DNA of 46,964 nucleotides. Source: a virus. Lineage: Duplodnaviria; Caudoviricetes. This document shows, piece after piece, positions 5,379 through 22,397 of this stretch. Both the position numbers and the translations under genes were made by a program. The notes beneath the pieces are model-generated. The model was not told the DNA's origin and made no database searches. It saw nothing but the letters and a program-made list of their open reading frames with translations. Numbering within the stretch: the stretch's first letter is position 1; each line of letters begins with the position of its first letter. Location: positions 1 through 46,964 of the IMG/VR virus record IMGVR_UViG_3300005758_001464; one strand, written 5' to 3'.

Positions 5379-5383
5379 TTAGC

Positions 5384-6673: not shown

Positions 6674-6681
6674 ATTATATT

Positions 6682-7260
6682 ATGACCGAAATAACTTCAG
6701 ACAACAACAACTATTTTTTAGTACACAAAGATTCATTCAGTAGTGGACAAATAGATAGTAAGCTATGGCTATGCGAACAACTTGAATTATTAAACATAGA
6801 AAGTAACGAAATTAATATATACGGCGGTTGGTATGGGCTAACTGCATTTTTACTGTTGAGTAGAAAAAAATTTAAAGTAAAAAAAATAAGAAGTTATGAC
6901 ATTGACCCAAATTGCGAATTAATTGCTGATATGATTAATCAAAATTGGGTATGGAAGGGCTGGCAATTTAAGGCTGAAACCAAAGATTGTAATACTATAT
7001 CTTCTACTGCGGATTTGATTATAAACACCTCCACTGAACATTTTAGCAGTATGTTATGGTGGGAGAACATATCACCGGGTACTATAGTAGTGTTGCAAGG
7101 AAATAATATGAAGCACCATGAAGATCATTATTCTTGCGTAGATAGTTTAGAACAGTTTGTAAGTAAGTTTCCAGTAAGTGAATTACTATATAAAGGAGAA
7201 ATGACTTTCAAATATGATACTTGGGGATTTTCTAGATACATGATCATAGGGATAAAATGA
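6682..7260 (+). CDS. Class I SAM-dependent methyltransferase-like protein
   Basis: IYGGWYG motif I, SYDID, DLIINTSTEH. Confidence 0.65.
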   Translation: MTEITSDNNNYFLVHKDSFSSGQIDSKLWLCEQLELLNIESNEINIYGGWYGLTAFLLLSRKKFKVKKIRSYDIDPNCELIADMINQNWVWKGWQFKAETKDCNTISSTADLIINTSTEHFSSMLWWENISPGTIVVLQGNNMKHHEDHYSCVDSLEQFVSKFPVSELLYKGEMTFKYDTWGFSRYMIIGIK

Positions 7261-7871
7261 TATACACATATAATAATAATTCTGTTTCTATTACTCTACC
7301 CCAACAAAAGCGCATTGGTGTTTTGGTGAGTGGTGGTATCGATAGTGCTATTCTTTATTATTTGCTTCTAAAAGAAAAACAAATCACCAATAGTGATCAC
7401 ATTATATACCCTATAGTTATGTTTAGAAAAGAGGGCTCCAAATATTTTGCAAGACCCATAGTAAAAAAAATACATGAAATTTTCAATATCTCGCTTAACG
7501 CAAAAAGATTCGGAAATAGTGATTTACCGGAAGAGAAACAAATAGAATCCGCGGTAATAGAGTCTATGGAAGTGCTTAGATTAGATACAGTGTATATAGG
7601 CGTAATCAAAAATAGACCCGAACACATGATAGGACTAGAGCATATTCCTGTTCCAAAAACCCCATTAATACAAACACCCTTCATCGATGTTGAGAAAGAT
7701 TTTATAATAAAATTATATCATGATATGGGCGTCGAACATTTATTAGAATATACACATAGTTGCGACAAAGACGAGTTAATTCACTGCGGCAATTGTAATG
7801 GGTGCAGAGAGCGAAAGTGGGGGTTTTCACGCAACGGATTTACCGACCTTAAAACAACGAAGTTAGAATAA
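7257..7871 (+). CDS. QueC-like PP-loop ATPase
   Basis: VLVSGGIDS PP-loop; THSC...HCGNCNGCRER Zn site. Confidence 0.75.
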   Translation: MIYTYNNNSVSITLPQQKRIGVLVSGGIDSAILYYLLLKEKQITNSDHIIYPIVMFRKEGSKYFARPIVKKIHEIFNISLNAKRFGNSDLPEEKQIESAVIESMEVLRLDTVYIGVIKNRPEHMIGLEHIPVPKTPLIQTPFIDVEKDFIIKLYHDMGVEHLLEYTHSCDKDELIHCGNCNGCRERKWGFSRNGFTDLKTTKLE

Positions 7872-8366
7872 TATTTTAGGCGGGGTTAGTGTTACTGACG
7901 AGCCTTTGGTTAGTATAAATTGTTCCGCACTCTCATATGAATCAAATTTATCAGGTTCTATAAACCCTTCATGTAAAGATACTTTTTGAATGACCCCGAA
8001 TAATTTATACCAAACCCTAACATTAAGATATCCAAAATAATTAGTGTTATATATGGGGTCATTTATCCATTTGTAGTATAAAGAAGAATTTGGAAATATT
8101 ATTTGTATAATGGATTTAGATTTTGTTTGATTTGAAAATTTATATACTTTAGTATTTTTGTAGAAAAACTCTGCCACTGAAGCACACAACTCCAAATACT
8201 CTGAAACCAATATTTTATCCTCATCACTTAAATTTTCATAAGTTTTTGTATTTAGGATTTCTGCTCTATTATCTTCATGTAATGGGCCTATTTCTTCATT
8301 AGTATATTCTTCGGTCAACAACATTGTCAAAAACATAAAATTCTCCAGTATCGTAATATTTAGCAT
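7863..8366 (-). CDS. Hypothetical protein (possible ABM/Dabb-like motif)
   Basis: 167-aa ORF; IIFPNSSLYYKW motif. Confidence 0.5.
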   Translation of the reverse strand: MLNITILENFMFLTMLLTEEYTNEEIGPLHEDNRAEILNTKTYENLSDEDKILVSEYLELCASVAEFFYKNTKVYKFSNQTKSKSIIQIIFPNSSLYYKWINDPIYNTNYFGYLNVRVWYKLFGVIQKVSLHEGFIEPDKFDSYESAEQFILTKGSSVTLTPPKILF

Positions 8367-8441
8367 TAAAAATTTTGAATTTTATTATATTCGTGCAGTA
8401 ATCCTCACATAAATATAAACACTTATTTTTTTAATTACACT

Positions 8442-9194
8442 ATGGCCATAACACACAACGTGCAAGTAAGAAGTTTACAGGCAATAAACCATGGTTTAGC
8501 TATCGTTGGACTTTTTTATGCCATAGTAAACGCTGAATGGTGGCTTCTTTTACTGTCACTGTGCGTATATTGGACTATTGGAATTTTAGGCATAAACATT
8601 GGCTTTCATAGGTTACTAAGTCATCGATCTTTTAATACTTACAAACCTATTTACTATGTTTTAACTGTATTAGGCACACTGACTGCTATGGGCAGCTCGC
8701 TTTCATGGGTAGCTGTTCATAGACAGCATCATAGATACAGCGATACTGATTTGGATCCACACAGCCCTCATAAATTTGGTGCAATTAAAACTTGGTTAGG
8801 ATTTTGGGGAGATATCAAAATAGATATAAGAAACTGCAACGATCTTAGAAAAGATTCGTTTCATAAATTCTTACACAAAAAATATATAATAATTCAATTA
8901 CTATATGTTTCTATTTTGGGTGCTATAGATCCTTTATTAATAATTTTTGTTTATGCTATTCCATCAGTACTAGTATTTCATTCGGCAGGCGCATTTGATG
9001 TAATTGCACACATGCATGGTTATAGAAGTTATGAAACCAAAGACCGTAGTTGCAACAGTTGGATAGCAAATATAATTACCATGGGGGAAGGATGGCATAA
9101 CAATCATCATGCTCGTCCAGGTAATTGGAGCAATTGGGAAAAGTGGTGGGAAGTTGATATCCCCTCGTTGATTATAAGAATAATTAAAAAATGA
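8442..9194 (+). CDS. Membrane fatty-acyl desaturase 1 (delta-9/DesC-like)
   Basis: His boxes HRLLSH, HRQHH, GEGWHNNHH; TM segments; CATAAATA at 8408. Confidence 0.93.
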   Translation: MAITHNVQVRSLQAINHGLAIVGLFYAIVNAEWWLLLLSLCVYWTIGILGINIGFHRLLSHRSFNTYKPIYYVLTVLGTLTAMGSSLSWVAVHRQHHRYSDTDLDPHSPHKFGAIKTWLGFWGDIKIDIRNCNDLRKDSFHKFLHKKYIIIQLLYVSILGAIDPLLIIFVYAIPSVLVFHSAGAFDVIAHMHGYRSYETKDRSCNSWIANIITMGEGWHNNHHARPGNWSNWEKWWEVDIPSLIIRIIKK

Positions 9195-9955
9195 AAAAAT
9201 TTGGTCATAATTTTTGGTTAGTGTTTTTACCATTTCATGTGTTAGCCGTTGTAGCCTTATTCTATATTTGGGACCATTGGGTATCGTTACTAGTACTTTG
9301 GTTTTTAATCGGTGTAATCGGTAATGGTGTAGCAGCCCATAGATATTTTGCCCATGGACAGTTTGAAACTTGGACTCCTGTTAGATGGGTATTAGGTATC
9401 CTAGCAACACTAGCAGCTATAGGTCCTTTAACTTATTGGACTATACAACATAAACTTCATCACTTGCAATCAGACGATCCTTTGGATCCTCATAGCCCAA
9501 ACCAGAATAGTGCATGGAAAGTTTTTTATGCTTGGACTTTTCCGCAAGGTAGCAATGAAGAATATTATCTGCAACATCGATGGGCGAAAAAGATAGCCGT
9601 TCAACAGATGCGAGATCCATTCTTTAAATTTTTTCATCAGCATCATTATAAAATAATTTACTTGTTCTGCATATTATTATTTCTTGTCGATCCTGTTTTA
9701 TTATTAATGTATTGTTTGGCGTATGCGATTGATTTTTTTAGATTAGGTGCGGTGAATTATTGGTGTCATAGAAGTGGATACCGGACATATGAAACTCAAG
9801 ATCAAAGTCGTAACAATGTTTGGTTAGGTTGGTTAGGTATGGGTTTTGGCTGGCATAACACACATCATGCTCATCCTGGAAGATTAGTGCTACAAGATCA
9901 CTGGTGGGAAATCGATATAGAAGGGTATATAGGATGGTTGATAAAAACAAAATAG
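9191..9955 (+). CDS. Membrane fatty-acyl desaturase 2
   Basis: His boxes HRYFAH, HKLHH, GFGWHNTHH. Confidence 0.92.
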   Translation: MKKFGHNFWLVFLPFHVLAVVALFYIWDHWVSLLVLWFLIGVIGNGVAAHRYFAHGQFETWTPVRWVLGILATLAAIGPLTYWTIQHKLHHLQSDDPLDPHSPNQNSAWKVFYAWTFPQGSNEEYYLQHRWAKKIAVQQMRDPFFKFFHQHHYKIIYLFCILLFLVDPVLLLMYCLAYAIDFFRLGAVNYWCHRSGYRTYETQDQSRNNVWLGWLGMGFGWHNTHHAHPGRLVLQDHWWEIDIEGYIGWLIKTK

Positions 9956-10605
9956 CATTAATAACAGGAGGCACCAAAGGAATCGGAAAAGCAATTGCAG
10001 AAAATTTATCCGATGAATATACTGTAATTACGGTTGGAAGAAGCAGTGCTGCAACTGAACAGGGTGATCTTAGGATTGAAAGTTTTAGAAATTATTTGGT
10101 AGAAAAATATACCCCCGAAATTTTTATTAACAATGCTGCTTGCTTGTATCGTAGTCCATTGGCAATGATTGAATCAAACGGAACAGTTCCGGTAGAAATG
10201 CTGTTAAAATTTTATGAAAAAATGCCTAGCGGTATAATAATAAACGTCAGTAGTCAAAGTGCCGAAAGACACGTAAGACCAAATGACGGGTTAGAAAAAA
10301 TCACGTATTCGATAAGCAAGAAATTCTTAAAAGATATGTCGTTGAGCTTAAATTATTCTAAAAATAAACCCATCAAAGTAATGTGCGTGAGTCCCGGAGC
10401 AGTACATACACCTATGCTAGAGTCTCTAACTGATTTCAGACCATCAACTACAGATTATGATAATTTTGATTGGAATAATAGTATTGCATGGACTACTCCT
10501 GAAGAAATGGCTAATGTAGTTAGATGGCTTATTGATTTACCTAAACACATTTGTATACCGGAAATAGTTCTAGACAATCATTATGCTAAAGCAACTTATT
10601 GGTAA
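9934..10605 (+). CDS. SDR oxidoreductase (possible ketoreductase)
   Basis: TGGTKGIG, INNA, NVSS, YSISK, VSPG. Confidence 0.88.
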   Translation: MVDKNKIALITGGTKGIGKAIAENLSDEYTVITVGRSSAATEQGDLRIESFRNYLVEKYTPEIFINNAACLYRSPLAMIESNGTVPVEMLLKFYEKMPSGIIINVSSQSAERHVRPNDGLEKITYSISKKFLKDMSLSLNYSKNKPIKVMCVSPGAVHTPMLESLTDFRPSTTDYDNFDWNNSIAWTTPEEMANVVRWLIDLPKHICIPEIVLDNHYAKATYW

Positions 10606-11732
10606 TTAAAAAAATAAAGTCGCAAGTCTTCGGAATACTCGTCAAAATAGTTTATTTCACTTTGTAGTTTTATTTTTTCAAGTGCACCTTCTTTAAAAGT
10701 TACATTGTCATAAACATAAAACAAATATAAATCATCGTCGTATTCTACATTGTGCGGGATCATTGATGCTGAAAACACCAGTATACTTGTTCGTTCGGTG
10801 ATTTTAAGTTGTTTAGGTTGCTGATCTTTCACTTTATCGTATAATAATGAAGGATCCGAATAATAGTTTAGTAAGTTTGGATCGTCTTTATCTAATGGAT
10901 CGTAAAACTTACTAATGGCTCCGTTACCGTTAAAAGTAAGTCTAACCGCAATAGTGAATGTATATCGTGTTTCTTCCGATAATCGATGCGTATGCAACGT
11001 TAATTCATCACCCAAAGCACTGTGTCCAATTAACACCGCAGCGTTATCACAATCTTTTATATAATTGTTGGCTAGTGATTCTGCGTCTAATGTTAGTTTT
11101 TGTAATTTTCTATATAACCACGGCGCTGTGTACATACAAGTAATGACCGCTTGATCAAAGCTGTATGCTAGTAACTTTGGGAAATTTCCAGTTTTAGTAG
11201 ATTTTTCACTAAGCGGTCTTCTAATAATATCGCTAGTTCTTTCTTTAATAAATCTCGAACCTAATCCTTTAATATTACCGGCTGGCTTAAAATTTCCATT
11301 TCCTACATAATCCCGCAGCGTCCCAATTGGTAAAATATTTTCAATTAAAAACTGTTTATGATACGTGATCAATGACCAGTCTATTAGATCATTTTTGGAA
11401 GGATAATTAACATAGGGGAATGGACTAATGTAATTATCCAATGACGTATATCTTTCAAATTTTACGACGCCTGAATTATGAATGTCGCTGAAAAGAGTTA
11501 CTATTTCGTCGTATCGTTTTCTATGTTTACTAGCCCAAAGTTCATAGTCTTCTTCACTCCAAAATATTACTCTTAATTCAGACACCAATCCGTCAGACGA
11601 TAAATGATTTTCTACTGTAACTACATGCGGGGATCCTATTAGCATAGAAACCAATTCTACTAGCTCTTTTTGTGGATATACTTCTCGTGAGTCCGTAGAA
11701 GATAAAGTCGTTATATTGTAAACAATATACAT
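10596..11732 (-). CDS. Hypothetical protein: N-terminal ABM-like motif, C-terminal cupin-like
   Basis: IFWSEEDYELW; LHTH...IPHNV. Confidence 0.55.
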   Translation of the reverse strand: MYIVYNITTLSSTDSREVYPQKELVELVSMLIGSPHVVTVENHLSSDGLVSELRVIFWSEEDYELWASKHRKRYDEIVTLFSDIHNSGVVKFERYTSLDNYISPFPYVNYPSKNDLIDWSLITYHKQFLIENILPIGTLRDYVGNGNFKPAGNIKGLGSRFIKERTSDIIRRPLSEKSTKTGNFPKLLAYSFDQAVITCMYTAPWLYRKLQKLTLDAESLANNYIKDCDNAAVLIGHSALGDELTLHTHRLSEETRYTFTIAVRLTFNGNGAISKFYDPLDKDDPNLLNYYSDPSLLYDKVKDQQPKQLKITERTSILVFSASMIPHNVEYDDDLYLFYVYDNVTFKEGALEKIKLQSEINYFDEYSEDLRLYFFNYQ

Positions 11733-11733
11733 A

Positions 11734-12102
11734 TCAAACTCGGTTATTATATTCTGTTAGCGGAAAAGAATTCAGAGAATTCATTATACAAGGTTCTTCT
11801 ACATACCTATTAATAGTTACACCAAAATCTTCTAGCTTTTTTATTAAAGTAGTCAACATAGAATCGTGTATTTCACCAAATTCATCGTTCCATTGTAAAT
11901 AAGCAGTTTTATCGTAAAAATTTAAAAAGGCTTCTATATAAGAATTATTATTGAGCACTTCCCATTTTTTTGAGGATATGTAGGGGCTATGATCCGGAAA
12001 GCATACATGCTGAATAATAGTAAATTCAGGTATTTCCTGAAGAATCGCTAAAACATCTGAATTAGGTTTTTCAAAAGTTGTTACAGTTTTGAACTCTGTC
12101 AT
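11734..12102 (-). CDS. Hypothetical protein (ABM/Dabb-like motif)
   Basis: FYDKTAYLQW, similar to the N-terminus of the adjacent gene. Confidence 0.55.
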   Translation of the reverse strand: MTEFKTVTTFEKPNSDVLAILQEIPEFTIIQHVCFPDHSPYISSKKWEVLNNNSYIEAFLNFYDKTAYLQWNDEFGEIHDSMLTTLIKKLEDFGVTINRYVEEPCIMNSLNSFPLTEYNNRV

Positions 12103-12168
12103 AAAATAGTTTATTTTTCTTTGAGTATTTATTTGTTAGTAAATAGATAAACATAAATTTGACAAACC

Positions 12169-12768
12169 ATGCATTACCGACCACTTACTATAAAAGACAA
12201 ATCACAGCTAATAGAGTTATTATCATTGCGACCTCAGGTATTTAATGGTTACGCAGATGATAATTACAAAGAGTTTATAATAAGCAAAGTTGATGAATTT
12301 TTTACTGACCGCACTTATTACCTTCCGGGAATTTGGGATGATGACAAATTATTGGGAACAATGATTGCAAAAGAATCTATAGGATCCCCTAGTTGGGTAT
12401 GGGGACATTGGGTGCGGCGGCTAGATGCTTCACAAAAATTATATACGGCAGAAGGAATTAATATTTTAAAACAGGCCGATGTTGAAATTTTCAACGAGAT
12501 GGAAATTAATAGAAAATTAAATAGATTTTTTGTGGCCTATAAAATAGATATTCAAGAAAACAATACGTTAAAAAATGCAGGAATGAGTGATCGGTTATTC
12601 AATCGAATGAGTAAAAGTAATTTTAGAGTAGCCAAATATAAATTTATGACTGATTGTGTGGTTAAGGCTGGGACGGAAGCTAAGTATGGTTATCAAAGAG
12701 CCATTCTAGCTGATAGGATTTGGCCCTTTGATGTAGCTATTCGAATGGGTGTGTTATTCGAGGCTTAA
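12169..12768 (+). CDS. Hypothetical protein, possible GNAT fold
   Basis: YRPLTIKD start and GIWDDDKLLG strand pattern typical of GNATs; weak. Confidence 0.5.
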   Translation: MHYRPLTIKDKSQLIELLSLRPQVFNGYADDNYKEFIISKVDEFFTDRTYYLPGIWDDDKLLGTMIAKESIGSPSWVWGHWVRRLDASQKLYTAEGINILKQADVEIFNEMEINRKLNRFFVAYKIDIQENNTLKNAGMSDRLFNRMSKSNFRVAKYKFMTDCVVKAGTEAKYGYQRAILADRIWPFDVAIRMGVLFEA

Positions 12769-13092
12769 TGGCTCGAACTCTTCACCGGTGTCACCATCTA
12801 TTACGATAAATTGAATATCGTGTCTTAGTACTTCTACTTCAAACCGGCTCCAAAACATCTTTCGCATAGGGTGTTTCTGGGCCTCTTCGAAGTGCTCTTT
12901 ACTTTCCCAATTGGTAGTTATTTCCCATCGCTCGTTATCAAAATGTGTGTCTTCTGCACTTATAAAACCAGGCATTTTTACACTATAATTTTTCATCAAC
13001 TGCTCAAATGGTAACCCCTGAGTAGTTACTATTCTAAACCTTTGCATTTTTGGTTCATCTAAACATTTTAACTTGTAGTATCTCGTGTACAT
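12754..13092 (-). CDS. ABM-family (dimeric alpha+beta barrel) protein
   Basis: MPGFISAE...TTNWESKEHFEEAQKHP. Confidence 0.65.
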   Translation of the reverse strand: MYTRYYKLKCLDEPKMQRFRIVTTQGLPFEQLMKNYSVKMPGFISAEDTHFDNERWEITTNWESKEHFEEAQKHPMRKMFWSRFEVEVLRHDIQFIVIDGDTGEEFEPLSLE

Positions 13093-13267
13093 TTTCTTTT
13101 CTCCGCTTTTTATTTAATGACGAATAGCTGTTTCATAAATATTTTTAACATAAAATATGCACCTACTGTAATAAAATTCCGAATAATTTTTATGTTTTTA
13201 CCCAACTCTTTTTAATTTAATCATGCATTTAAACATTATTAAATACATATAATATGGAGAATTTAAT

Positions 13268-13606
13268 ATGTACGGAAGAGTAGTGCGCCTTACACCAAGA
13301 AACCAAAACGAAGCAAGAAAATTGTGCAAAGAGTTCATCGATAACCTATATTTTCATCCAATGTATGAACCTTTGGTAGAAAATTTAAAGCAGCAGGTAG
13401 GATTCGCACACAAAGCAAGTACTGTGTACGAAAGTGCTGAAAAAGTAAAACTGATAACGTCGTTAGCATTTGACACACAAGAAAATTATGAGCTATATGC
13501 CAATGAAGAATCAACACAAGAACTATGGAATTACCTTTTTCTCTTTGCCGACGAAGAGGGATTCGACGTTGATATCGTCGACGGAGAGCAAAATTTAAAT
13601 TTCTAA
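13268..13606 (+). CDS. ABM/Dabb-like small protein
   Basis: QVGF...LAFDTQENYELY; GGAGA RBS. Confidence 0.55.
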   Translation: MYGRVVRLTPRNQNEARKLCKEFIDNLYFHPMYEPLVENLKQQVGFAHKASTVYESAEKVKLITSLAFDTQENYELYANEESTQELWNYLFLFADEEGFDVDIVDGEQNLNF

Positions 13607-14416
13607 TTTATAATTAAGATGGTCCTTGTATTTGTTGACACTTCTTTCTAACAATTCGTCTAATTTGGTTACACTTAAGAATCCATTAATACAAAGTAAT
13701 TGTTTTCTTTTTCCAAAATAATCACTACCGTGTATCTGTGACCCGTTAGACCAACAAAAAGAGTTAGTGTCAAGACCGTCAAGGTCTACATACTGAACAT
13801 CGCCTTCTTCTACGTCACAAGTGTACAATGTGGGAGATTCATTTTCATCGTGTAACATTATTCTGAATTCTGTAGGGCAGTTCCAAAAAAATGTTTGATC
13901 TCTATGGGGAAGAACTTCTTTAGTGCTTTCCCATATATACATATGACTTAAGTGAGCGAATGGAAAATATTCTATTACTTGATCTATAATAGGTTTAAAA
14001 ACAGGATGATCTAAATATTTGTGGGCGAATATTCCTTTTTCATTTTCATAAAATTTTTCAGGCTCAACAGTCCAAATATGCAATCCCTTAAACTGAGGAA
14101 CATAATAATTACTTTTTTTTCCTAAAGGATGTTTTTCCTTAGTCCATGGTTCAGCGGTACATGGTTTAAGTCTTACTACGTCGATAGCTTCTTTATCCCA
14201 CACTTCCATAAATTCTTGATAATTAGGGAACTCGATTTTAGGAATGTCCAAAGGCAACCATCTTATATTTCTATATTTTTGGCCAAGCTCTTTCATTTTG
14301 GTGTCATACCATTCAGGTAAATCATACCCGAATGTTGCATTTTGAGTTGTGTGGGTAGCCAAGTTATTTTTTGCTACCTGTTTCCTTACAGTTTCAATCA
14401 TAAGTTTGTTTGGCAT
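13595..14416 (-). CDS. Putative Fe(II)/2OG-type DSBH oxygenase (Asp beta-hydroxylase-like)
   Basis: LPHRD...FRIML...HGSD...KQL; GGGAGA RBS. Confidence 0.55.
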   Translation of the reverse strand: MPNKLMIETVRKQVAKNNLATHTTQNATFGYDLPEWYDTKMKELGQKYRNIRWLPLDIPKIEFPNYQEFMEVWDKEAIDVVRLKPCTAEPWTKEKHPLGKKSNYYVPQFKGLHIWTVEPEKFYENEKGIFAHKYLDHPVFKPIIDQVIEYFPFAHLSHMYIWESTKEVLPHRDQTFFWNCPTEFRIMLHDENESPTLYTCDVEEGDVQYVDLDGLDTNSFCWSNGSQIHGSDYFGKRKQLLCINGFLSVTKLDELLERSVNKYKDHLNYKLEI

Positions 14417-14468
14417 GAGTTCTCCCTATATAATATATTTAGTCGAGGGTGATTTCGCTAAATATTAC

Positions 14469-15929
14469 ATGCACACGGAATTTTTACTTTTAACAAATGT
14501 AGCAAGTCCATTATGGCAAAGAGCGATTGGTGCTTACCAAGTTGCAGACCATTGCAGAAAATTCGGTATTAACTGTCAAGTTTTAGATTTTACTGACTTA
14601 TTTAAGATTGAAGAATTAGAAACGATCATTCTTTCTTTTGTGAATGATCAAACATTAGCCATTGGAATTTCTACTACCTTTTATTATAATCAAGACACTA
14701 AAGGAAAATTTATTAGTGCTAAAAGACATTTCAATCAAATACTCCCCAACAATGTTAGAAATTTACTATATAAAATTAAAAATCAATTTCCTAATTTAAA
14801 AATAATTGGAGGCGGTGCTAACAGTTATCAAATCGAAGAAGATGATCTATTTGACGTTGTGTTTCACGGTTATAGTGAACAAAGTGTAGCAGAATATCTA
14901 CAAGAGTTACAAGGAAAAAGATTAAAAAGAATTTGGCCAAAAAAGAACAATCAAATCATCATCGATGGAAAATCTGCGCATTTTGATATTACCACATTAG
15001 ATCACCGTTGGAGTAAAAATGATTTTATTCTTCCCAGTGAAACATTACCTATTGAAATCAGCAGAGGATGTATCTTTAAATGTAATTTTTGTTCATATCC
15101 ACTTAACGGCAAAAAGAAATTTGACTATCTACGGGATCCTGAATTAATCAGAGAAGAATTAATTTACAATTACGAAAATTTTGGTACTACAAATTATTTT
15201 TTTACTGATGATACTTTTAACGACTCTACTATGAAAATAGAGTTGTTACATAAAGCAATAACAAGCTTGCCATTCAAAATCAAGTTCGTTACTTATTTGA
15301 GACTTGATCTGTTAAATGCCCATAGAGAACAGATACCTTTACTTAAAGAAATGGGTTTAGGTTCTTGTTTCTTTGGAATAGAAACTTTAAATCACGCTAG
15401 TGGTAAAGCTATAGGTAAAGGCATGAACCCTGAACTAGTAAAAAAGTTTTTGCTAGAACTTTATTACGATCATTGGAATGCAGAGATACCATTTACGTGT
15501 AGCTTTATTATCGGGTTGCCCGGGGAGACCATTGAGTCTGTTAGGGCAACTCATGCTTGGTGCAAAACCACTCCGTTTAACGACTTATGGTTCCCATTGT
15601 TTATCAAAGCTAAAAGCCATTATAAAAGCGAATTTGACTCTAACTATGAAAAATACGGTTATCAGCTAGATAGTGAAGGAAATTGGTACACCGACATTAT
15701 GACTTATCAACAAGCATTAGAGGTAGCAGAAGAATTTAACGGCATAGGGCTATATAATGAAAATACCCCCAGCAGCTGGTTACTGTTTAGTTTGTTAAGT
15801 TATGGATTTACTATTAATGAAATTAAGGATACTAAAATCCAAGAACTTCATTGGCCTAGTATCCTTTTGAAAAAGTTTAAACTGTTTAAACAATACAAAG
15901 ATTTAGTTTTTAAAGCGATTCAAAAATAG
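14469..15929 (+). CDS. B12-binding-domain radical SAM enzyme
   Basis: KIIGGG N-terminal domain; EISRGCIFKCNFC; DDTFN; GIET; FIIGLPGET; start taken at ATG 14469. Confidence 0.9.
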   Translation: MHTEFLLLTNVASPLWQRAIGAYQVADHCRKFGINCQVLDFTDLFKIEELETIILSFVNDQTLAIGISTTFYYNQDTKGKFISAKRHFNQILPNNVRNLLYKIKNQFPNLKIIGGGANSYQIEEDDLFDVVFHGYSEQSVAEYLQELQGKRLKRIWPKKNNQIIIDGKSAHFDITTLDHRWSKNDFILPSETLPIEISRGCIFKCNFCSYPLNGKKKFDYLRDPELIREELIYNYENFGTTNYFFTDDTFNDSTMKIELLHKAITSLPFKIKFVTYLRLDLLNAHREQIPLLKEMGLGSCFFGIETLNHASGKAIGKGMNPELVKKFLLELYYDHWNAEIPFTCSFIIGLPGETIESVRATHAWCKTTPFNDLWFPLFIKAKSHYKSEFDSNYEKYGYQLDSEGNWYTDIMTYQQALEVAEEFNGIGLYNENTPSSWLLFSLLSYGFTINEIKDTKIQELHWPSILLKKFKLFKQYKDLVFKAIQK

Positions 15930-17085
15930 TAATATTGGTTCTACCACCAAAACCAAAACTAGCTTTCATAAAAATATTACCGTTCAATTTAGTTTGTTCG
16001 GTTATAATTCTAGCATCATCAGATAATGGTTCAGTTAGATTATAGTTAGGATGCAGGAATCCATTTTTTACAGCCTCAAGTCCATACGCACTTTCTATTA
16101 GACCACATGCGCTCATCGTGTGTCCTATATATCCTTTAAAAGAAACTATAGGAATATCAATGTCTTCGAATGCTTTTTGAAAAACGTCAACTTCAATATC
16201 ATCGCCGACAAGTGTGCTTGTGGCATGAGCATTAAAGAACGCTATATCTTTGGCAGTCAGGTTAGCCTGACTTAATGCTTGGTTTATTAGTTTTAATTGA
16301 TTCTCGCAAGTTTTGTCATGTGCAGTCATACTGGTAACTTTAGCTCCGCTGACAATGGATCTTATCTTTGCTTTCGGAGTTAAATTATTTCTTACCAATG
16401 TTTCTTCGTCGCACACAAACCAAAGTGTACCACCTTCACCTTGTAAAAAACCGTCTCTTTTTTTATCAAAGGGAGCGCAGTTTCCTCCGTTTAGAGTAGA
16501 AATAGCACTGGTGCATTGCCAATGATATTGCATTACTGGAAGTATCGGCATGTCTGCATTTCCCACTAAGGCAGCAGATGTTTGACCCGTTTGAATAAGC
16601 ATAACTGCAAGATGCAGATTAAACATACTGCTAGTACATGCGCCATTTAAACTAGTATTAATTCCTTCTAATTTAATTTTACCTGCAACCAACGCCGATA
16701 GTAAATCGTGATTTCCTTGAAACAATTTAGTAGGACTGAATCTTGTTGCATTCGACTCAAATGCAGCCATAAATTCATCACGAATTTTTAAACCCGAAGA
16801 AAATGAGCCAAACACTACCGCAGAATCTTTAGGAATATGGGATTCTACCTCATATTTAGAACTAATTTCATTGCACAAATCTACCGTTATTTTGTATGTG
16901 CTATAATCTGAATCGACATAACTCATATGATATCCTTTTTTGCAAAGGACATTTGAATATTCTTCATGATTATATCTTAGCGGCAGCGTCGCGCCCGGAG
17001 TATTGGGCATGTTTAGGTAGTTAGCAGATACGTCGGTACCTAAACAGTCTTTAACCAAATAATCTACGATATAAACGTCTTTCAT
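15910..17085 (-). CDS. Beta-ketoacyl-ACP synthase (FabF/FabB-like, divergent)
   Basis: GACTSS catalytic Cys, NAHATST and KGYIGHT His, PFD..RDGF..GEG, SFGFGG. Confidence 0.93.
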   Translation of the reverse strand: MKDVYIVDYLVKDCLGTDVSANYLNMPNTPGATLPLRYNHEEYSNVLCKKGYHMSYVDSDYSTYKITVDLCNEISSKYEVESHIPKDSAVVFGSFSSGLKIRDEFMAAFESNATRFSPTKLFQGNHDLLSALVAGKIKLEGINTSLNGACTSSMFNLHLAVMLIQTGQTSAALVGNADMPILPVMQYHWQCTSAISTLNGGNCAPFDKKRDGFLQGEGGTLWFVCDEETLVRNNLTPKAKIRSIVSGAKVTSMTAHDKTCENQLKLINQALSQANLTAKDIAFFNAHATSTLVGDDIEVDVFQKAFEDIDIPIVSFKGYIGHTMSACGLIESAYGLEAVKNGFLHPNYNLTEPLSDDARIITEQTKLNGNIFMKASFGFGGRTNITIFESL

Positions 17086-17445
17086 TTATTTCTTTTTAAT
17101 TTTAGTAGGATCTTGGCTATCAGTGATATACCCAACCAAATCAGACCAAACAAGAAGTTTTGCAATTTCTTGATCATCAATCGTTGCGCCAAATTCTTCT
17201 TCAACTTGAATGATAAGTTCCAATATATCAATACTGTCTATTTCTAGATTTTTTTTCTTAAGATCGGCTAGTTCTTCGGGTAATCCCTCTATTTCTGTAT
17301 TATTGACTAGTCGAAGATCCTTAATGGATAAGTCCGGCGGCAAAGGATATTCAAGTTCTAGATTCAAATATTCATTTATCATTGAAATGAATTTTTTTTC
17401 AACCTGTTCTTTGGTAAGTGGGGTCCAATTTTCTGTAGTACTCAT
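17086..17445 (-). CDS. Acyl carrier protein 1 (extended)
   Basis: EIDSIDILELIIQVEEEFG; acidic; AGGAGA RBS. Confidence 0.88.
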   Translation of the reverse strand: MSTTENWTPLTKEQVEKKFISMINEYLNLELEYPLPPDLSIKDLRLVNNTEIEGLPEELADLKKKNLEIDSIDILELIIQVEEEFGATIDDQEIAKLLVWSDLVGYITDSQDPTKIKKK

Positions 17446-17468
17446 GTTTTCTCCTGTGCGTATATTTA

Positions 17469-17921
17469 TTACACTCCGGCTAGAGCTTTTAATTTAGCTT
17501 GCGCAGCAACTATTCCGTTTACCTCAATAGTAGATTCAAACTCAAAAATATTTCTAGCATTTCTAGTCATTGTGCTAAAAATATGCAATTGATCTCCCGG
17601 ATATATAACTTTCCTAAATTTTACCTGATCCGCATCTGAAAATAATATACCAAAACCTTTGAAGTATTTTGCGATCTCCGGATTATCTTCAACATATTTA
17701 AAGGCTAATATAGTACTAGCCTGAGCCATAGACTCAATCATCATTACTCCCGGCATGATAGGATTTTCAGGAAAATGCCCTTGAGCATATGGTTCATTTG
17801 CTGTAAAATTTTTAATTGCCTCTATGGATCGGTGATCATATTGCACCACTGAATCTATCATCAGAAAAGGGTATCGATGTGGCAATATTTCCAGTATTTG
17901 TTTTATAGAAAGTGATTTCAT
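17469..17921 (-). CDS. fabZ: 3-hydroxyacyl-ACP dehydratase
   Basis: LPHRYPFLMID, GHFP..PIMPGV, ESMAQ, KFRKVIYPGD. Confidence 0.95.
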   Translation of the reverse strand: MKSLSIKQILEILPHRYPFLMIDSVVQYDHRSIEAIKNFTANEPYAQGHFPENPIMPGVMMIESMAQASTILAFKYVEDNPEIAKYFKGFGILFSDADQVKFRKVIYPGDQLHIFSTMTRNARNIFEFESTIEVNGIVAAQAKLKALAGV

Positions 17922-18012
17922 GTTATGTATTATATAAACAACAACAGGATTAATCAATAATAATTTTACCCATAAAATTAACTTTAGTAAAGATCCGGTA
18001 CATAAATACTTG

Positions 18013-18381
18013 ATGATTATTGGACACGGAATAGATATAGTATCGCTAGAAAGATTTTATCAAATACCCATTGGTAGATTAGATAAGATGGCTAATAGAA
18101 TACTCACTGAACAAGAATTATCTAATTATAAAACAATAAGCAATCCAAAAAAGCCCGTATATATAGCAAAGATTTGGGCTAGTAAAGAAGCTATTTCCAA
18201 AGCTATAGGTACCGGTATACAAGAAAACACTACTTGGAAAAGTATGAATATACAAAATAATGCACTAGGCAAGCCGGAAGTAAAATTAGAAATACCCAAT
18301 GCTTATTGTTTACTCAGCATTAGTCACGAAAAAGAATATTTGGTAGCCAGTGCAATTCTGTGTTCTAGTGACCAAACTTAA
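18013..18381 (+). CDS. acpS: Holo-ACP synthase (phosphopantetheinyl transferase)
   Basis: GHGIDIV, WASKEAISKA.GTG, GKP, LSISHE; CATAAATA at 18001. Confidence 0.93.
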   Translation: MIIGHGIDIVSLERFYQIPIGRLDKMANRILTEQELSNYKTISNPKKPVYIAKIWASKEAISKAIGTGIQENTTWKSMNIQNNALGKPEVKLEIPNAYCLLSISHEKEYLVASAILCSSDQT

Positions 18382-18421
18382 TGTTTTACATTACTATATC
18401 GCAGCCTACCAAAATAAAAAT

Positions 18422-18976
18422 CTAACACAAATTGTCTAAAACTTCTTGATATGAATGTTCATGCCAACTATACGTTATAAATGAGCGTTTACTAGTTGAA
18501 ATTTTATAAACTGAATGTATTTCGCTGACATTTAATAGATATGATTCGTTTGATTTAGCTATAAAATGTCCAATTTGGTTTAATTTAGATGCGTCGAATA
18601 TATTAGATTGATCTCGTCCCGGATAAGCAGTACCTGATACATTTGAGTTTTTTTCGTAAAAACAGGTACGATCTTTTTCCGCAGATAGGTATACATTTAA
18701 ATTTACTAACGGACCGTGGTCTATATGGGCCCCTAAAAGACCACTGCCGGTTATCTGCGAGTAAATTATATAATTAGGTTTTATTTTACAAAATGACCGT
18801 GTGTGCAATGACAGCACGTCATCCAAATTTTCAATCACAAAATATTCTAACAATGTTCCGGTGCCGGCGAAGGATGTAATTAATTTCCCCAACTTAAGTT
18901 TAGGTACAATATCCACACTTGTATCTAAAAAATTTTCTACTTTTGTAAAATAGTTGGTTAATTTGGACGTAGACAT
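18422..18976 (-). CDS. Hypothetical DSBH/2OG-oxygenase-like protein
   Basis: AHIDH...LNVYL...YLLNVSEIHSV...RSF. Confidence 0.6.
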   Translation of the reverse strand: MSTSKLTNYFTKVENFLDTSVDIVPKLKLGKLITSFAGTGTLLEYFVIENLDDVLSLHTRSFCKIKPNYIIYSQITGSGLLGAHIDHGPLVNLNVYLSAEKDRTCFYEKNSNVSGTAYPGRDQSNIFDASKLNQIGHFIAKSNESYLLNVSEIHSVYKISTSKRSFITYSWHEHSYQEVLDNLC

Positions 18977-19057
18977 TCTTTTTTAAAAGCTTAAGTTAGA
19001 CTAAGTAAAATATATAGATATTTATATCCTGTACTTAATTAAATTTAAACTTCAAAA

Positions 19058-19612
19058 ATGCGAGCCGTAACGTGGATTCCCAATTCTGACAAAGATTTAG
19101 ATCATTTGTTTAATGAACTTCGTAAAATTCAACACAACAACACTAATCATCCGCTGTGGCAAAATTATAATAAAGAACATTTTTATTCTGAATGTTCGGC
19201 ACTGAGTATATCATTTGACGAACATGATGTTCCTATATTTTGTAGTAGTATCTTGAAAAGAGCTTGTTGGCCTAATCAAGTGTATAGAATAATCAATCGG
19301 CTTTGGAAAGTATCGCCGATATCCGAACCTTTAAAAAACTCTCATCCGGCATTGGGGCCCATGCTGTATTCTCAGTTGGATTGGCTTGAAAAAAACACTA
19401 ACTGTGAGCTAGTTTTTATAAGCAGAGAAACGCCTAATTGGCAACGTTGGACTATTAAACAACTGGCTAAAAATTATAATTTGCATTTTGGGGTTGACGA
19501 TTATAAATACTTAACTTGCAGTAATTCAACTGACGATAGTTGTTGGCAACATATCATATATCAAGGGAACATAAAATTATTAACTCACTGGCAGAAAAAA
19601 TTAGACAACTAA
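19058..19612 (+). CDS. Hypothetical protein, possible acyltransferase (GNAT-like)
   Basis: 184-aa ORF; YRIINRLW and LVFISRE segments; fold guess is weak. Confidence 0.5.
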   Translation: MRAVTWIPNSDKDLDHLFNELRKIQHNNTNHPLWQNYNKEHFYSECSALSISFDEHDVPIFCSSILKRACWPNQVYRIINRLWKVSPISEPLKNSHPALGPMLYSQLDWLEKNTNCELVFISRETPNWQRWTIKQLAKNYNLHFGVDDYKYLTCSNSTDDSCWQHIIYQGNIKLLTHWQKKLDN

Positions 19613-20382
19613 TATTTTGGGCTCCTATATGGGGAGGACTACTACCCATACACATTTTTGGAGTTTATGCGATTATTATGTTATTCTCAAATAACAGTCC
19701 TGATTATTGGTGGATTTACTCTATCATAGGATATGTATGCATAATGATGTTAGGGTTAAGTGCCTGTTATCATAGGCTTCTCAGTCATCGTAGTTTTACT
19801 ACGGGAGTATGGCGCAAACGATTTATACTATGGTGCGCAATAATGAGTGGACAAGGTAGTCCAATCAGTTGGGTTCTAGTCCACAGGGGATATCATCATA
19901 GATTATCTGATACTGATAAAGATCCGCATAGCCCCAAACATGGTTTTTGGCATTCATATGTAGGTTGGATGTTTAAAATAAAGCCAGATACATTAAGCCC
20001 TAAATATGTAGTAGACTTAATGCGCGATCAAGACGTAGTTTTTGCTCATACTCACTATTTAAAGATTTTTTGGATAAGTCATGCTCTTCTAATTTTACTG
20101 AATCCCACAGTGTGGATATGGGGTGTTATGTTTCCTTCGTTAATTGCGTTTCATAGCTATGCATTGAACACTAGTGTCAATCATTGGACGAAATTAGGAT
20201 ACAAAAATTATGAAACAAAAGATGACAGTATGAACGTAGTTTGGTTATGGCCTTTAATTTTAGGTGAAGCTTGGCATAACAATCATCATGGTCTTGCTAG
20301 CAGCAGCAACTTTGGTGGAAAGCGTTGGTGGGAATTAGATCCCACAAACTGGCTTATTTGGTTGATACGTTCTGATCGATAA
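19540..20382 (+). CDS. Membrane fatty-acyl desaturase 3 (start codon uncertain)
   Basis: HRLLSH, HRGYHH (HX3HH), GEAWHNNHH. Confidence 0.92.
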   Translation: MLATYHISREHKIINSLAEKIRQLIFWAPIWGGLLPIHIFGVYAIIMLFSNNSPDYWWIYSIIGYVCIMMLGLSACYHRLLSHRSFTTGVWRKRFILWCAIMSGQGSPISWVLVHRGYHHRLSDTDKDPHSPKHGFWHSYVGWMFKIKPDTLSPKYVVDLMRDQDVVFAHTHYLKIFWISHALLILLNPTVWIWGVMFPSLIAFHSYALNTSVNHWTKLGYKNYETKDDSMNVVWLWPLILGEAWHNNHHGLASSSNFGGKRWWELDPTNWLIWLIRSDR

Positions 20383-20617
20383 GCTGTACTATAGCGTCAT
20401 GCAACGGGCGTAATGTTTTTGCAGTCGATGTTGCGGGGTGATCTACATCTATTTCTATGTTGAAATGTTCTTCGCAGCATAGAATTAACTCCGTTGAACT
20501 CAGACTGTCTAATCCCAAATCATTTCTAAAACTTAAATCCAAATGCAATGGATTAATCTTTTTTTTATTAAAAAATTTGTCTACTATGGACAATAATTGT
20601 TCTTCAACAGTTTTCAT
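20354..20617 (-). CDS. Acyl carrier protein 2
   Basis: FRNDLGLDSLSSTELI..EEHFNIEI. Confidence 0.9.
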   Translation of the reverse strand: MKTVEEQLLSIVDKFFNKKKINPLHLDLSFRNDLGLDSLSSTELILCCEEHFNIEIDVDHPATSTAKTLRPLHDAIVQLIDQNVSTK

Positions 20618-20635
20618 AATTGCGTATAGTATATA

Positions 20636-21502
20636 TTAAAACATTAACTTATATTGCTGGTATCTTTGTAACATCTGTAGGTATGGTTCATTTTCTTCCA
20701 CAGGAGCTAGATCAGTTGGTTGCATTTTTTCAGCAGGAACCGCTAATATATTACTGACTCCATACATATCAAATGGATTTTCGTCTGATTGCTTGTATGT
20801 GGGCGCCAATGGTTTATTCCTACATGTTACCCAATACTGTTTGTACTGCATGTCGCGCAAATATTCAAAACAAGGTCCGTAACTATTAGGTTCTATCGCT
20901 TCATAAAAAACCACTGGACGATTTGCATTAAGTAATCTAGTCGCACCTTGCAATACGTCTAATTCATGGCCCTCAACGTCTATTTTAATTAAATCACAAT
21001 GAGTTAATTCTTCTAGTTCATCTAATTTAATCAAACTAACTTCCACTGTTCCTTCTTCAGAAATAGACACCTCACCAAAATTACCCGATTTTTCAGGATC
21101 AAAATCTTTAATATTGATTACTCCATTAGAGTTTCCAACTGCGGTATTGTATATCCTAATAGGTTTATCTTTGCAATTATAGGCTGCAATAGCGAAATGA
21201 TTAGGGTGTGGTTCGAATCCTCGTACTTGGCAACCAACACGTTGGTGCACTGCAAGTGCATGGTAGCCTATATTAGTTCCCACATCTACATATATGCTTT
21301 CAGGGGTAAGATACCTAGACATAATATCAACTTCGGCATCACAGTATTCACCGAATAGAGCTAGAGAATAGCTAATGATATTATCATTTTTGTATACTAG
21401 CATCTCGCCTACTTTAGTATCAGTTGTGCCTAAGATGGGCTTAAGTTGATTTAAGTGTTCGTTAACGTCAAAAGTTTTGATTTTATTAGTTTGTTTAGCC
21501 AT
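20636..21502 (-). CDS. FkbM-family methyltransferase
   Basis: VDVGTNIG, FEP, IKIDVEGHE..VLQG. Confidence 0.9.
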   Translation of the reverse strand: MAKQTNKIKTFDVNEHLNQLKPILGTTDTKVGEMLVYKNDNIISYSLALFGEYCDAEVDIMSRYLTPESIYVDVGTNIGYHALAVHQRVGCQVRGFEPHPNHFAIAAYNCKDKPIRIYNTAVGNSNGVINIKDFDPEKSGNFGEVSISEEGTVEVSLIKLDELEELTHCDLIKIDVEGHELDVLQGATRLLNANRPVVFYEAIEPNSYGPCFEYLRDMQYKQYWVTCRNKPLAPTYKQSDENPFDMYGVSNILAVPAEKMQPTDLAPVEENEPYLQMLQRYQQYKLMF

Positions 21503-21522
21503 ACAGTATGTATCAAAGAAAT

Positions 21523-21849
21523 TTATACTCTAAAACTTTCTCCGCACCCACATCTATCTTTCTCTTTAGGATTTATAAAATCAAATCCTTCATTAAGACC
21601 CTGCCGTTTCCATTCCATGGTCATGCCGTCGATATATTGTAGGTCTTTGGTATTTACCCAAATATTTACATCATAGCTTTCATATTTTACCCACTCTTCA
21701 TGATTCGGTGCTACATCCACGTATTCTAATTTATACGCCAGCCCACTGCATCCCGTAGTTTTAACACCTATCATTATTCCTAAACCCTTGCCTCGGGTCA
21801 AAAGTTGTTGTTTTACTTTGTTCGCTGCTTTTTCAGTTAAGGTAATCAT
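21523..21849 (-). CDS. iscA: Fe-S cluster A-type carrier
   Basis: TTGCSGLAY, CGCGESF. Confidence 0.95.
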   Translation of the reverse strand: MITLTEKAANKVKQQLLTRGKGLGIMIGVKTTGCSGLAYKLEYVDVAPNHEEWVKYESYDVNIWVNTKDLQYIDGMTMEWKRQGLNEGFDFINPKEKDRCGCGESFRV

Positions 21850-22028
21850 TTTTTAATTAAATTAATACATGAGGCAGAAACTCTATACTTTTCTATCTGC
21901 CAGCTATTTAAAATAGTTGCTTTTGCTGTTATGCATTCTTCTTTGGTAGTAAAATGCATAATCAATGACCCGTCATTTTTATTAATGGGGGATCCATTTA
22001 AAATAGCAATTACAACTAAACTCCACAT
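21846..22028 (-). CDS. Small hypothetical protein
   Basis: 60 aa, overlapping iscU and iscA; F.TKEEC...ASC. Confidence 0.55.
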   Translation of the reverse strand: MWSLVVIAILNGSPINKNDGSLIMHFTTKEECITAKATILNSWQIEKYRVSASCINLIKK

Positions 22029-22396
22029 TTTTTTCTATAGTCTAAAATTGCAGACTTTATCGCATCTTCTGCTAATATCGAACAGTGAATTTTAACAGGC
22101 GGTAACGCGAGTTCCTCCGCAATTTCAGTGTTCTTAATTTCATTAGCTTCATGAAGGGTTTTGCCCTTAAGCCAAGTCGTAACGAGCGATGAACTCGCAA
22201 TCGCCGAACCGCAACCGTATGTCTTGAATTTGGCGTCTGTGATAATTTCATTTTCTACTTTTATTTGAAGTTTCAAAACATCACCGCAAGCAGGTGCACC
22301 AACAAGACCAGTACCAACGGAAGGATCGCTAGTATCAAAACTACCCACGTTTCGGGGGTTTTCATAATGGTCTAATACCTTATCCGAATAAGCCAT
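22016..22396 (-). CDS. iscU: Fe-S scaffold protein
   Basis: MAYSDKVLDHYENPRNVG, GAPACGD, YGCGSAIASSS, LPPVKIHC. Confidence 0.98.
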   Translation of the reverse strand: MAYSDKVLDHYENPRNVGSFDTSDPSVGTGLVGAPACGDVLKLQIKVENEIITDAKFKTYGCGSAIASSSLVTTWLKGKTLHEANEIKNTEIAEELALPPVKIHCSILAEDAIKSAILDYRKKCGV

Positions 22397-22397
22397 A

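Follow-up and report, generated by a model that had tools for sequence, protein, structure and literature searches.

We describe a gene cluster at positions 7257-21502 of a 46,964-nucleotide viral stretch (Duplodnaviria; Caudoviricetes; IMG/VR record IMGVR_UViG_3300005758_001464; the whole stretch is hereafter called the window), which belongs to a conserved two-module system of jumbo phages. In the reading that we prefer, and to which we give a probability of about one half, what the cluster would build on its own carriers late in infection is a short acyl chain, both unsaturated and oxidised, and carrier-dependent GNAT-fold proteins would pass the acyl group on to an acceptor amine, for which a component of the virion or the cell surface as modified by the phage is the most plausible candidate. 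This acyl-donor line can be likened to rhizobial NodE/NodF/NodA; folds, residues, co-conservation, gene absences and a promoter-like motif were observed, and from these we infer each reaction and the acceptor.

A preliminary description of the same DNA had listed in this interval a ketoacyl synthase (KAS) with a Cys-His-His triad, two acyl carrier proteins (ACPs), AcpS, FabZ, a short-chain dehydrogenase/reductase (SDR), three 8-His desaturases, a radical S-adenosylmethionine (SAM) enzyme, a QueC-like ATPase and an FkbM methyltransferase. All of them are present on the same unbroken phage contig and flanked as described, with an array of 10 tRNAs to the left and nrdAB and PAAR to the right, and about 10 further genes, several of them core to the cluster, lie within the interval. 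The principal features are the following.

8442-9194 (+), membrane desaturase 1, 8-His (FA_desaturase; His boxes)
9191-9955 (+), membrane desaturase 2, 8-His (FA_desaturase; His boxes)
12169-12768 (+), GNAT A, core, candidate acyltransferase of the KAS module (AlphaFold pLDDT 87)
12754-13092 (-), ABM-like small protein, core (Pfam ABM E 6e-4, under the cut-off; Atlas ABM cluster 0.93)
13268-13606 (+), ABM/ferredoxin-like small protein, core (hhalign 92% to 12754-13092)
13595-14416 (-), cupin or 2-oxoglutarate (2OG)-Fe(II) oxygenase-like protein with HxD...H, core, following KAS in most relatives (Asp_Arg_Hydrox feature match)
15910-17085 (-), KAS, homodimeric type, core (Pfam ketoacyl-synt N and C; invariant catalytic residues; tree)
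17086-17445 (-), ACP1, dedicated carrier, core, adjoining KAS (Pfam PP-binding; DSID serine)
17464-17470 (-), ATAAATA late-promoter-like motif upstream of ACP1-KAS, one of 13 such sites
17469-17957 (-), FabZ-type dehydratase, core, likely start ATG at 17921 (NF000582, 152 bits over a cut-off of 113)
18010-18381 (+), AcpS phosphopantetheinyl transferase (PPTase), core (TIGR00516, 87 bits over a cut-off of 60)
19058-19612 (+), GNAT B, anchor of the wider module, overlapping desaturase 3 (AlphaFold pLDDT 94)
19540-20382 (+), membrane desaturase 3, 8-His, partner of GNAT B (FA_desaturase; His boxes)
20354-20617 (-), ACP2, canonical-size carrier of the GNAT B module (Pfam PP-binding; GLDSL)

Conservation and modular organisation

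Co-conservation was assessed in 18 loci in which KAS is flanked on either side by at least 4.5 kb; two of these loci (L002 and L102) are near-identical. ACP1, GNAT A, the ABM-like protein at 13268 and a PP-loop ATPase of either of two families were found in all 18 loci; FabZ, the ABM-like protein at 12754, the oxygenase at 13595 and a desaturase in 17; AcpS and GNAT B in 16, ACP2 and a Rieske protein in 12, an ABC1 kinase in 10, the radical SAM enzyme in nine and the SDR in three. Two loci are without GNAT B and AcpS; on the contig of one of them, both genes are found at a distance of about 14 kb. Overall, the core is kept in about 30 related loci, including G001, a complete GAP32-like jumbo phage with a T4-like genome of 364,554 bp carrying gp23, portal and terminase, whose capsid protein is 68-73% identical to those of GAP32/CBB-like jumbo phages. 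A scan of G001 (E 1e-6), cited below by its scanned ORFs, covered 296 of the 424 called open reading frames (ORFs; 110-1000 amino acids, aa), in which genes split at 20-kb borders were scanned piecewise.

GNAT B is more widely distributed: it was found in 52 viral loci, 49 of which have a desaturase within 8 kb, 35 a PP-loop ATPase, 14 ACP2 and 10 KAS. Since a second complete phage, G004, keeps GNAT B, desaturases, ACP2, AcpS and a PP-loop ATPase, together with the SDR, and has KAS nowhere, the ACP2 module can stand alone. The genes fall into two modules, ACP1-KAS-FabZ-GNAT and a wider block, GNAT-desaturase-ACP2-AcpS-PP-loop, which also occurs where KAS is missing; the ACP2/GNAT B/desaturase/PP-loop set appears to be the base unit and KAS/ACP1/FabZ an add-on for chain supply.

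A host-phage chimera was ruled out as far as testable: positions 3375-23000 are covered by one 36,239-base contig of uniform depth and without joints (a contig possibly from the window's own source run), the GC content of the cluster matches that of the downstream flank (0.34 and 0.35), and G001 is a complete phage. The two other outcomes that could have undone the idea of a dedicated pathway, lack of co-conservation in relatives and placement of KAS or ACPs inside housekeeping clades, were looked for as well and did not occur.

Ketosynthase lineage and substrate pocket

The KAS has the residues of an elongating ketosynthase of the thiolase fold, C150, H287, H322, K317 and the FGFGG loop being invariant in all 91 aligned clade members (8 fragmentary matches of the homolog search were excluded), and it lies outside the FabF family as delimited by TIGR03150 (159 bits, cut-off 494). 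Among the 120 clusters listed in the homolog search, 99 (the window's own included) are 54-100% identical to it and the next 21 only 28-36%. Profile scans, which are pattern-based and can miss members, assigned 9 viral and 33 metagenome loci to the clade among the 80 kept per collection, while in GTDB no KAS above 33% was present among the 80 kept of 134 loci; cultured-phage records held no KAS above about 31% and no match to GNAT B or ACP1. In a FastTree phylogeny of 120 KAS representatives, with a limited cellular sample and a cellular leaf as root, 43 viral-contig, 23 metagenome and 14 searched proteins form one clade with the window (support 1.0), and this 81-member viral-type lineage excludes all 18 GTDB and 21 FabF-type metagenome sequences. 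The window itself sits in a subclade of 22 members (support 1.0, stem 1.19). The KAS clade was found on viral or metagenome contigs only, and it is nested in a larger lineage of viral KAS apart from all sampled cellular FabF.

The pocket differs from that of FabF at several positions. Residue 95 is F, M or W in 91/91 members, where cellular FabF reads GSGIGG, and across the tree it is Gly in 0/81 viral-type versus 32/39 other KAS sequences; W189 stands in place of FabF F202, again in 91/91, flanked by Y/F187 and Y/H188 where FabF had small residues, and the xGF pocket motif is also replaced by bulky residues with respect to bacterial FabF. In the HMMER alignment, F95 falls on G107 of wild-type FabF and on the Phe of chain 4LS6, which reads GSGFGG and which we take to be the FabF I108F mutant. 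I108 and F202 constitute a back gate of FabF at C7-C8, and I108F leads to C6-C8 products (PMC9006962; bioRxiv 2026.02.26.708327; here and below, papers are cited for the portions of their text that were available). The predicted back gate of the phage KAS, filled by bulky residues, suggests short chains, around C6-C8, or an unusual starter. One KAS-like gene was found per clade locus and in complete G001, and a type II polyketide synthase (PKS) of the KS-CLF type, whether aromatic, polyene or aryl polyene, was dropped on account of the single KAS without a chain-length factor.

A wider viral KAS radiation, 23-38% identical to the window's KAS, was seen in viral contigs L010-L080 (e.g., L017:9683-12429, L022:9692-11714, L034:9788-11002, L055:7128-11191). 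These genes have bulky pocket residues, mostly have no ACP detected nearby and often come before desaturases or after runs of 2OG-type oxygenases; some adjoin tail-fibre-like genes. Small proteins at L022:9280-9675 and 14245-14451 flank the KAS-desaturase block, one of them with a Cys-rich C-terminal tail, and resemble modified structural precursors or precursors of ribosomally synthesised and post-translationally modified peptides.

Carrier proteins and functions supplied by the host

ACP1 carries an insert of variable length (about 10-30 aa in the alignment) before the DSID serine, and both ACPs reach at best about 41% identity to the ACPs found next to canonical fabF, whose median identity among themselves is 81%. 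FabZ has the HFP..PGV...E dyad motif. In agreement with the preliminary description, neither FabD nor an adenylating (acyl-AMP) ligase was found in the window, and complete G001 has no FabD, FabH, FabG, FabI, SDR or AMP-binding enzyme; the window's SDR, for its part, scores below all FabG cut-offs. A housekeeping type II fatty acid synthase (FAS) operon, with FabD, FabH and FabG, was rejected on these grounds. Because G001, a complete genome, is without FabD and SDR, malonyl loading and ketoreduction would come from the host. The SDR is unlikely to be the ketoreductase of the KAS cycle, since it is rare among the KAS loci, is missing in G001 and travels with the ACP2 module in KAS-less G004. 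The earlier proposal of a dedicated, phage-owned ACP/KAS pathway on host malonyl units is therefore upheld by co-conservation in relatives and by the position of its genes outside housekeeping FabF/AcpP, with the loading step necessarily borrowed.

In loci L095-L098 the ACP1 insert is shorter, the DNA covered showed neither FabZ nor a 12754-type protein, and ACP1-KAS is directly preceded by as many as four desaturases in tandem, a possible sign of a different product type.

GNAT-fold proteins

The best VIA match of the GNAT A model is a GNAT (Z 12.9, rmsd 2.7 over 145 residues). That of GNAT B has Z 10.8, and its top 21 VIA matches include LasI (Z 10.0, rmsd 4.3, 146 aligned), MesI, TofI, FeeM (Z 9.5) and RpaI, at Z 9.3-10.0, within the range of generic GNATs (10.8-9.2). 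The coenzyme A (CoA) P-loop motif [RQ]xxGx[GA] was found anywhere in the sequence in 3/20 GNAT A and 1/22 GNAT B members. Carrier-dependent GNATs such as FeeM and SbzI have lost this motif, Q/RxxGxG/A (PMC11685415), and both phage proteins combine, as these do, a GNAT fold (in the models) with a replaced CoA P-loop motif.

The family of GNAT B is without annotation and comprises 255 clusters at 50% identity; it conserves N36, Y37, R77, N80, R81, Q106, S122 and C162 and the motifs NY, RxxNR and CWQ; the 105 distant members scanned gave one weak Acetyltransf_1 match and none to another family, and its alignments (A3, A7) found nothing significant in a PDB sequence search. GNAT A is largely limited to close relatives (43 clusters). 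The two profiles have no similarity by hhalign (0.7%), and natural fusions of GNAT B with a weak GNAT A-like domain occur in P0215, P0241 and L296 (E 0.005-0.007). A complex prediction of ACP1 with both GNATs scored 0.00, an outcome that gives no answer and counts neither way. With two GNAT-fold genes present, acyl transfer is the likely exit step of the pathway.

Promoter-like motif

TAAATA lies at most 56 nt upstream of 13/23 genes between 5384 and 21502 and of 11/14 transcription-unit leaders; dinucleotide shuffles gave means of 3.9 and 2.7, respectively, and reached the observed values in 0/1000 cases. In relatives it precedes 117 of 279 core-family starts, being commoner than any other permutation of the same letters, and five flanking non-cluster families have it in 1/13, 0/7, 0/9, 0/7 and 0/8 cases. 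ATAAATA has been described as a putative late promoter upstream of structural genes of CBB and GAP32 (PMC5259590). Scans for sigma-70 promoters and terminators remained at chance level (75 vs. 84 and 9 vs. 10). The one RNA run mapped to the DNA matched just tRNA and iscU-like pieces, which stem from other organisms.

Proposed pathway and alternative explanations

In the proposed pathway AcpS, by family a PPTase, would prime ACP1 and ACP2, while host FabD and FabG would provide malonyl loading and ketoreduction, borrowed as for NodE/NodF. KAS would extend the chain on ACP1 and FabZ would dehydrate it, yielding a short enoyl chain of perhaps C6-C8 or one from an unusual starter, which may then be tailored by the desaturases, by 2OG-type oxygenases and, optionally, by the products of Rieske, radical SAM, SDR or kinase genes. 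The PP-loop ATPase, judging from its fold, could activate a carboxylate towards an amide or nitrile, and the two GNATs, sometimes fused, would load or off-load the acyl group, their dependence on carriers being suggested by the lost CoA motif. A more specific version is possible and put forward tentatively: GAP32-like jumbo phages would hold a virus-specific thiotemplated line with an ancient viral ketosynthase, the short oxidised acyl group would be placed on virion proteins or glycans by a new two-GNAT acyltransferase, and swapped tailoring genes would diversify this non-host lipid decoration of a tailed, membrane-less virion.

Several points weigh against the proposed pathway. Its substrate, product and acceptor are themselves inferred candidates; a neighbouring carrier is often missing, an ACP matching the ACP2 profile lying within 8 kb of GNAT B in just 14/52 loci; and the cluster sits among tRNA and auxiliary genes, not among structural genes. 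Loss of the P-loop fits a GNAT-like decarboxylase too, and membrane desaturases, of which the window has three, usually act on chains longer than the C6-C8 that the pocket would give. The LasI and FeeM matches of GNAT B are tied with ordinary acetyltransferases, and GNAT B falls outside the LuxI family, as no Autoind_synth match was obtained with 22 members (E 1) or 105 distant relatives (E 0.001), nor any FeeM-type family match. With regard to timing, one flanking non-cluster family has TAAATA in 6/11 cases and the FabZ, GNAT B and FkbM leaders are without it; in G001 the motif precedes 7/18 structural and 3/20 replication or other genes (Fisher p 0.14), so that late expression is argued from the published CBB/GAP32 motif. 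Finally, the register of KAS residue 95 is ambiguous (G107 or I108), and FabB G107M still makes longer chains (bioRxiv 2026.02.26.708327).

Other explanations have to be weighed against the same evidence. The product might be a diffusible N-acyl amide, a FeeM- or LuxI-like output serving as phage signal, quorum-sensing mimic or antagonist, and the quorum-sensing synthases and FeeM among the structural neighbours of GNAT B, a short-chain KAS suited to acyl groups of N-acyl-homoserine lactone size and variable tailoring genes recalling small-molecule diversification would all fit; nonetheless we find this doubtful, given that those neighbours score no better than generic GNATs, that the Autoind_synth searches were empty, that no LuxR-type receptor was found among the 296 scanned G001 ORFs, and that late-type promoters suit a signal less well. 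Unlikely, in our view, is an expanded membrane-remodelling auxiliary module whose desaturases and KAS adjust the acyl chains of host phospholipids or lipid A. Cyanophage desaturases are delta-9 lipid desaturases (PMC5776448), the window has three desaturases and genes of lipopolysaccharide-sugar type, and relatives add an ABC1 kinase and a fatty-acid hydroxylase; however, private ACPs, an AcpS, two GNATs and a PP-loop ATPase are not needed for a bulk change, the ACPs are remote from those beside canonical fabF, and the KAS pocket looks unsuited to C16-C18.

The analogy drawn by the preliminary description, with polyyne or alkyne (jam/cay) and polyene type II PKS-like clusters making a fatty acid, now seems very improbable. 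An ACP together with as many as four 8-His desaturases, arranged in tandem immediately upstream of ACP1-KAS in L097/L098, the lack of an enoyl reductase and ABM-like proteins that could be cyclases or monooxygenases recall such systems, but no acyl-AMP ligase (PF00501) was found in the window or in the two complete relatives G001 and G004, which leaves the polyyne logic unsupported, and the polyene logic of KAS, ketoreductase and dehydratase is unsupported too, with an SDR in 3/18 loci, missing in G001 and present in KAS-less G004; nor was there a chain-length factor, or a thioesterase match among the scanned G001 ORFs. Least probable is an acyl group destined for nucleic acid, as DNA base hypermodification or tRNA modification. 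GNAT-based acyl modification of phage DNA is known from Mom (PMC7824862), nucleobases are acted on by enzymes of the PP-loop and QueC folds, a tRNA array lies next to the cluster and G001 has folE and queD-like genes. Against this, membrane desaturases and late-type promoters fit poorly, as DNA protection must accompany replication, folE and queD are far from the cluster in G001, and a PP-loop family unrelated to the QueC-like gene can take its place. Supply of octanoate for lipoate was also considered and rejected, no lipoate genes being recognised among the scanned G001 ORFs.

Relation to known systems

For the preferred reading, acyl transfer from dedicated carriers to an amine acceptor, rhizobia offer a parallel in which NodA has a GNAT-type fold and host FabD loads NodF. 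The cluster shares with NodE/NodF/NodA, in its case by fold and co-conservation, the joint presence of a stand-alone FabF-like KAS, a dedicated ACP and an N-acyltransferase. NodE/NodF make an unusual unsaturated chain, the cluster ketoreductase NodG is dispensable, and a specific N-acyltransferase transfers the chain (PMC9048898). In contrast to that system, no NodB/NodC match was found in the cluster or the scanned G001 ORFs, orthology is not expected, GTDB having yielded no KAS above the 33% mentioned, and AcpS, FabZ, a second ACP, two GNATs, desaturases, oxygenases and a PP-loop ATPase are additions of the phage. JamABC/CayABC cassettes comprise an ACP, several membrane desaturases and a fatty acyl-AMP ligase; the phage cluster has the ACP and the 8-His membrane desaturases, but no fatty acyl-AMP ligase or thioesterase was found in it, and KAS, FabZ and GNATs stand there instead. 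Bacterial type II FAS (FabF, FabZ, AcpP, AcpS) has the same folds and catalytic residues, and phage FabZ and AcpS pass the curated cut-offs, whereas the phage differs in a KAS below the FabF cut-off, a bulky pocket, the ACP1 insert and the absence of FabD, FabH, FabG and FabI from complete G001. The Fee cluster, with FeeM, which makes N-acyl amino acids, and the ACP FeeL, and LuxI synthases resemble it in a GNAT without the CoA P-loop, dependent on ACP in their case (PMC11685415) and putatively in the phage, FeeM and LasI being structural neighbours of GNAT B. Unlike a member of either family, GNAT B gave no sequence-family match, and it conserves other residues (NY, RxxNR, CWQ).

The cluster is real and, on the preferred reading, a new viral form of dedicated acyl-ACP transfer pathways. 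To our knowledge, tailed phages are thought to acquire lipid genes singly, as membrane-tuning auxiliaries, whereas here dozens of jumbo phages conserve a whole carrier-based pathway of modular build, which includes a PPTase of its own, a ketosynthase lineage outside sampled cellular genomes and two unannotated GNAT families. If the proposal is true, an acyl natural product or virion decoration is made by the viruses themselves, which would also be an unmined source of new chemistry for ketosynthases, desaturases and acyltransferases, among them a KAS that makes short chains by nature and is of interest for fatty-acid engineering. The core genes are all small and suitable for expression in E. 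coli, hence the question is directly testable. Among described phage systems, the cyanophage desaturase vFAD is a single gene (PMC5776448), fabG-acpP-fabF in three roseobacter prophages keeps the host gene order (PMC8224337), and a flavobacterial jumbophage island with duplicated ACP has been proposed to acylate membrane proteins, the available text mentioning no KAS, desaturase or PPTase for it (bioRxiv 10.64898/2026.04.22.720137); as there described, none of the three has a KAS lineage specific to viruses together with a PPTase and GNATs of its own. The terms 'acyl carrier', 'fatty acid' and 'desaturase' are absent from the main text of a survey of 224 jumbo phages (PMC7824862), and a term search gave no match in PMC8504454 and one passing mention in PMC11924767. 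No description of this cluster was found in main texts, with supplements outside the scope and most subscription papers outside reach.

Tailoring and accessory genes

The remaining genes of the interval are as follows.

7257-7871 (+), QueC-like PP-loop ATPase (Pfam QueC 48 bits; SGGxDS and Zn motif)
7863-8366 (-), unknown protein, weakly like the 10596-11732 family (E 0.004), with no orthologue near related KAS genes
9904-10605 (+), SDR oxidoreductase, accessory, likely start 9934 (adh_short; TGxxxGxG and YxxxK)
10596-11732 (-), two-domain protein with a small N-terminal domain and an HxH...H probable metal-binding domain, accessory (9/18 loci)
11734-12102 (-), small protein, probably ABM-like (hhalign 93% to the N-terminus of 10596-11732; 15/18 loci)
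14349-15929 (+), radical SAM enzyme with a weak B12-binding-like N-terminal domain, accessory, likely start 14469 (CxxxCxxC)
18422-18976 (-), small 2OG-Fe(II) oxygenase-like protein, HxD...H...R (conserved H84, D86, H154 and R164)
20636-21502 (-), FkbM methyltransferase (TIGR01444 passed)

Each of the three desaturases has the boxes HxxxxH, HxxHH and HxxHH, a spacing by which desaturases and acetylenases cannot be told apart, and desaturase 3 had only three matches, at 28-32%, in cultured-phage records. The protein at 13595-14416 (ESM Atlas) has a feature match of 0.96 to an Asp_Arg_Hydrox cluster and structural similarity (TM 0.59-0.62) to 2OG-type models, with H171 in 45/47 sequences; a PDB sequence search with this 273-aa family gave nothing significant. 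Its alignment (A5) contains a second paralog class in which the distal metal His is missing (YGID for HGSD); this class is nonetheless retained in tandem at many loci and is possibly a non-catalytic partner. In G004 (L264:1239-3122) a 13595-type oxygenase is fused to a 10596-type protein, and this fusion places both types in one pathway. The small oxygenase at 18422-18976 or a sister family occurs in 16/18 loci, and the window has a paralog at 3779-4336.

The QueC-like gene has the SGGxDS and Zn motifs, but with TIGR00364 it scores 38 bits, under the QueC cut-off of 150, and QueC proper (preQ0 synthase) was rejected on this score and because no que genes were recognised beside it. A different PP-loop ATPase of about 300 aa, present in 17/18 loci, is absent from the window, the QueC-like gene occurs in 3/18 and one or the other in 18/18, so that the latter probably fills in the window the slot of the former; by hhalign the two families have just the PP-loop motif in common. 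The B12 domain of the radical SAM enzyme is a weak match under the cut-off (PF02310 E 0.0014), although a paralog in G001, about 30% identical, passes. The radical SAM enzyme and FkbM had been counted as pathway members; the former is accessory (9/18 loci), and FkbM, with no match near any related KAS and homologs elsewhere in G001, probably adjoins the conserved pathway without being part of it. A ladderane lipid cluster was rejected, the radical SAM enzyme scoring 82 bits against the 360 of TIGR04072 and being merely accessory.

Neighbouring genes and host

The best matches of nrdA are in Xanthomonas, Ralstonia and Stenotrophomonas phages (53-60%), and from IscU/IscA in the window and a porin in G001 the host would be a Gram-negative proteobacterium. 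The IscA and IscU Fe-S assembly genes (21523-22396, -) adjoin the cluster and could serve the radical SAM and Rieske enzymes. To the left, genes for a 429-aa unknown protein and a 192-aa methyltransferase-like protein (5384-7260, +) are co-transcribed with the QueC-like gene, with a perfect TATAAATA upstream, and the homologs of this pair in G001 adjoin tail genes and radical SAM genes. A further block of G001 (L254:8723-11463) joins heme oxygenase, a ferredoxin-dependent bilin reductase and two desaturase-like genes, no photosystem gene being recognised in the scan. Further to the right in the window, genes for sugar-nucleotide enzymes (PfkB kinase, cytidylyltransferase), glycosyltransferases and methyltransferases form a block (30699-38473, -) that is a candidate surface or virion glycosylation island, and two very large RCC1-like repeat proteins (38536-46920, -; 1298 and at least 1495 aa, repeats recognised by eye) are probably tail or adhesin fibres.

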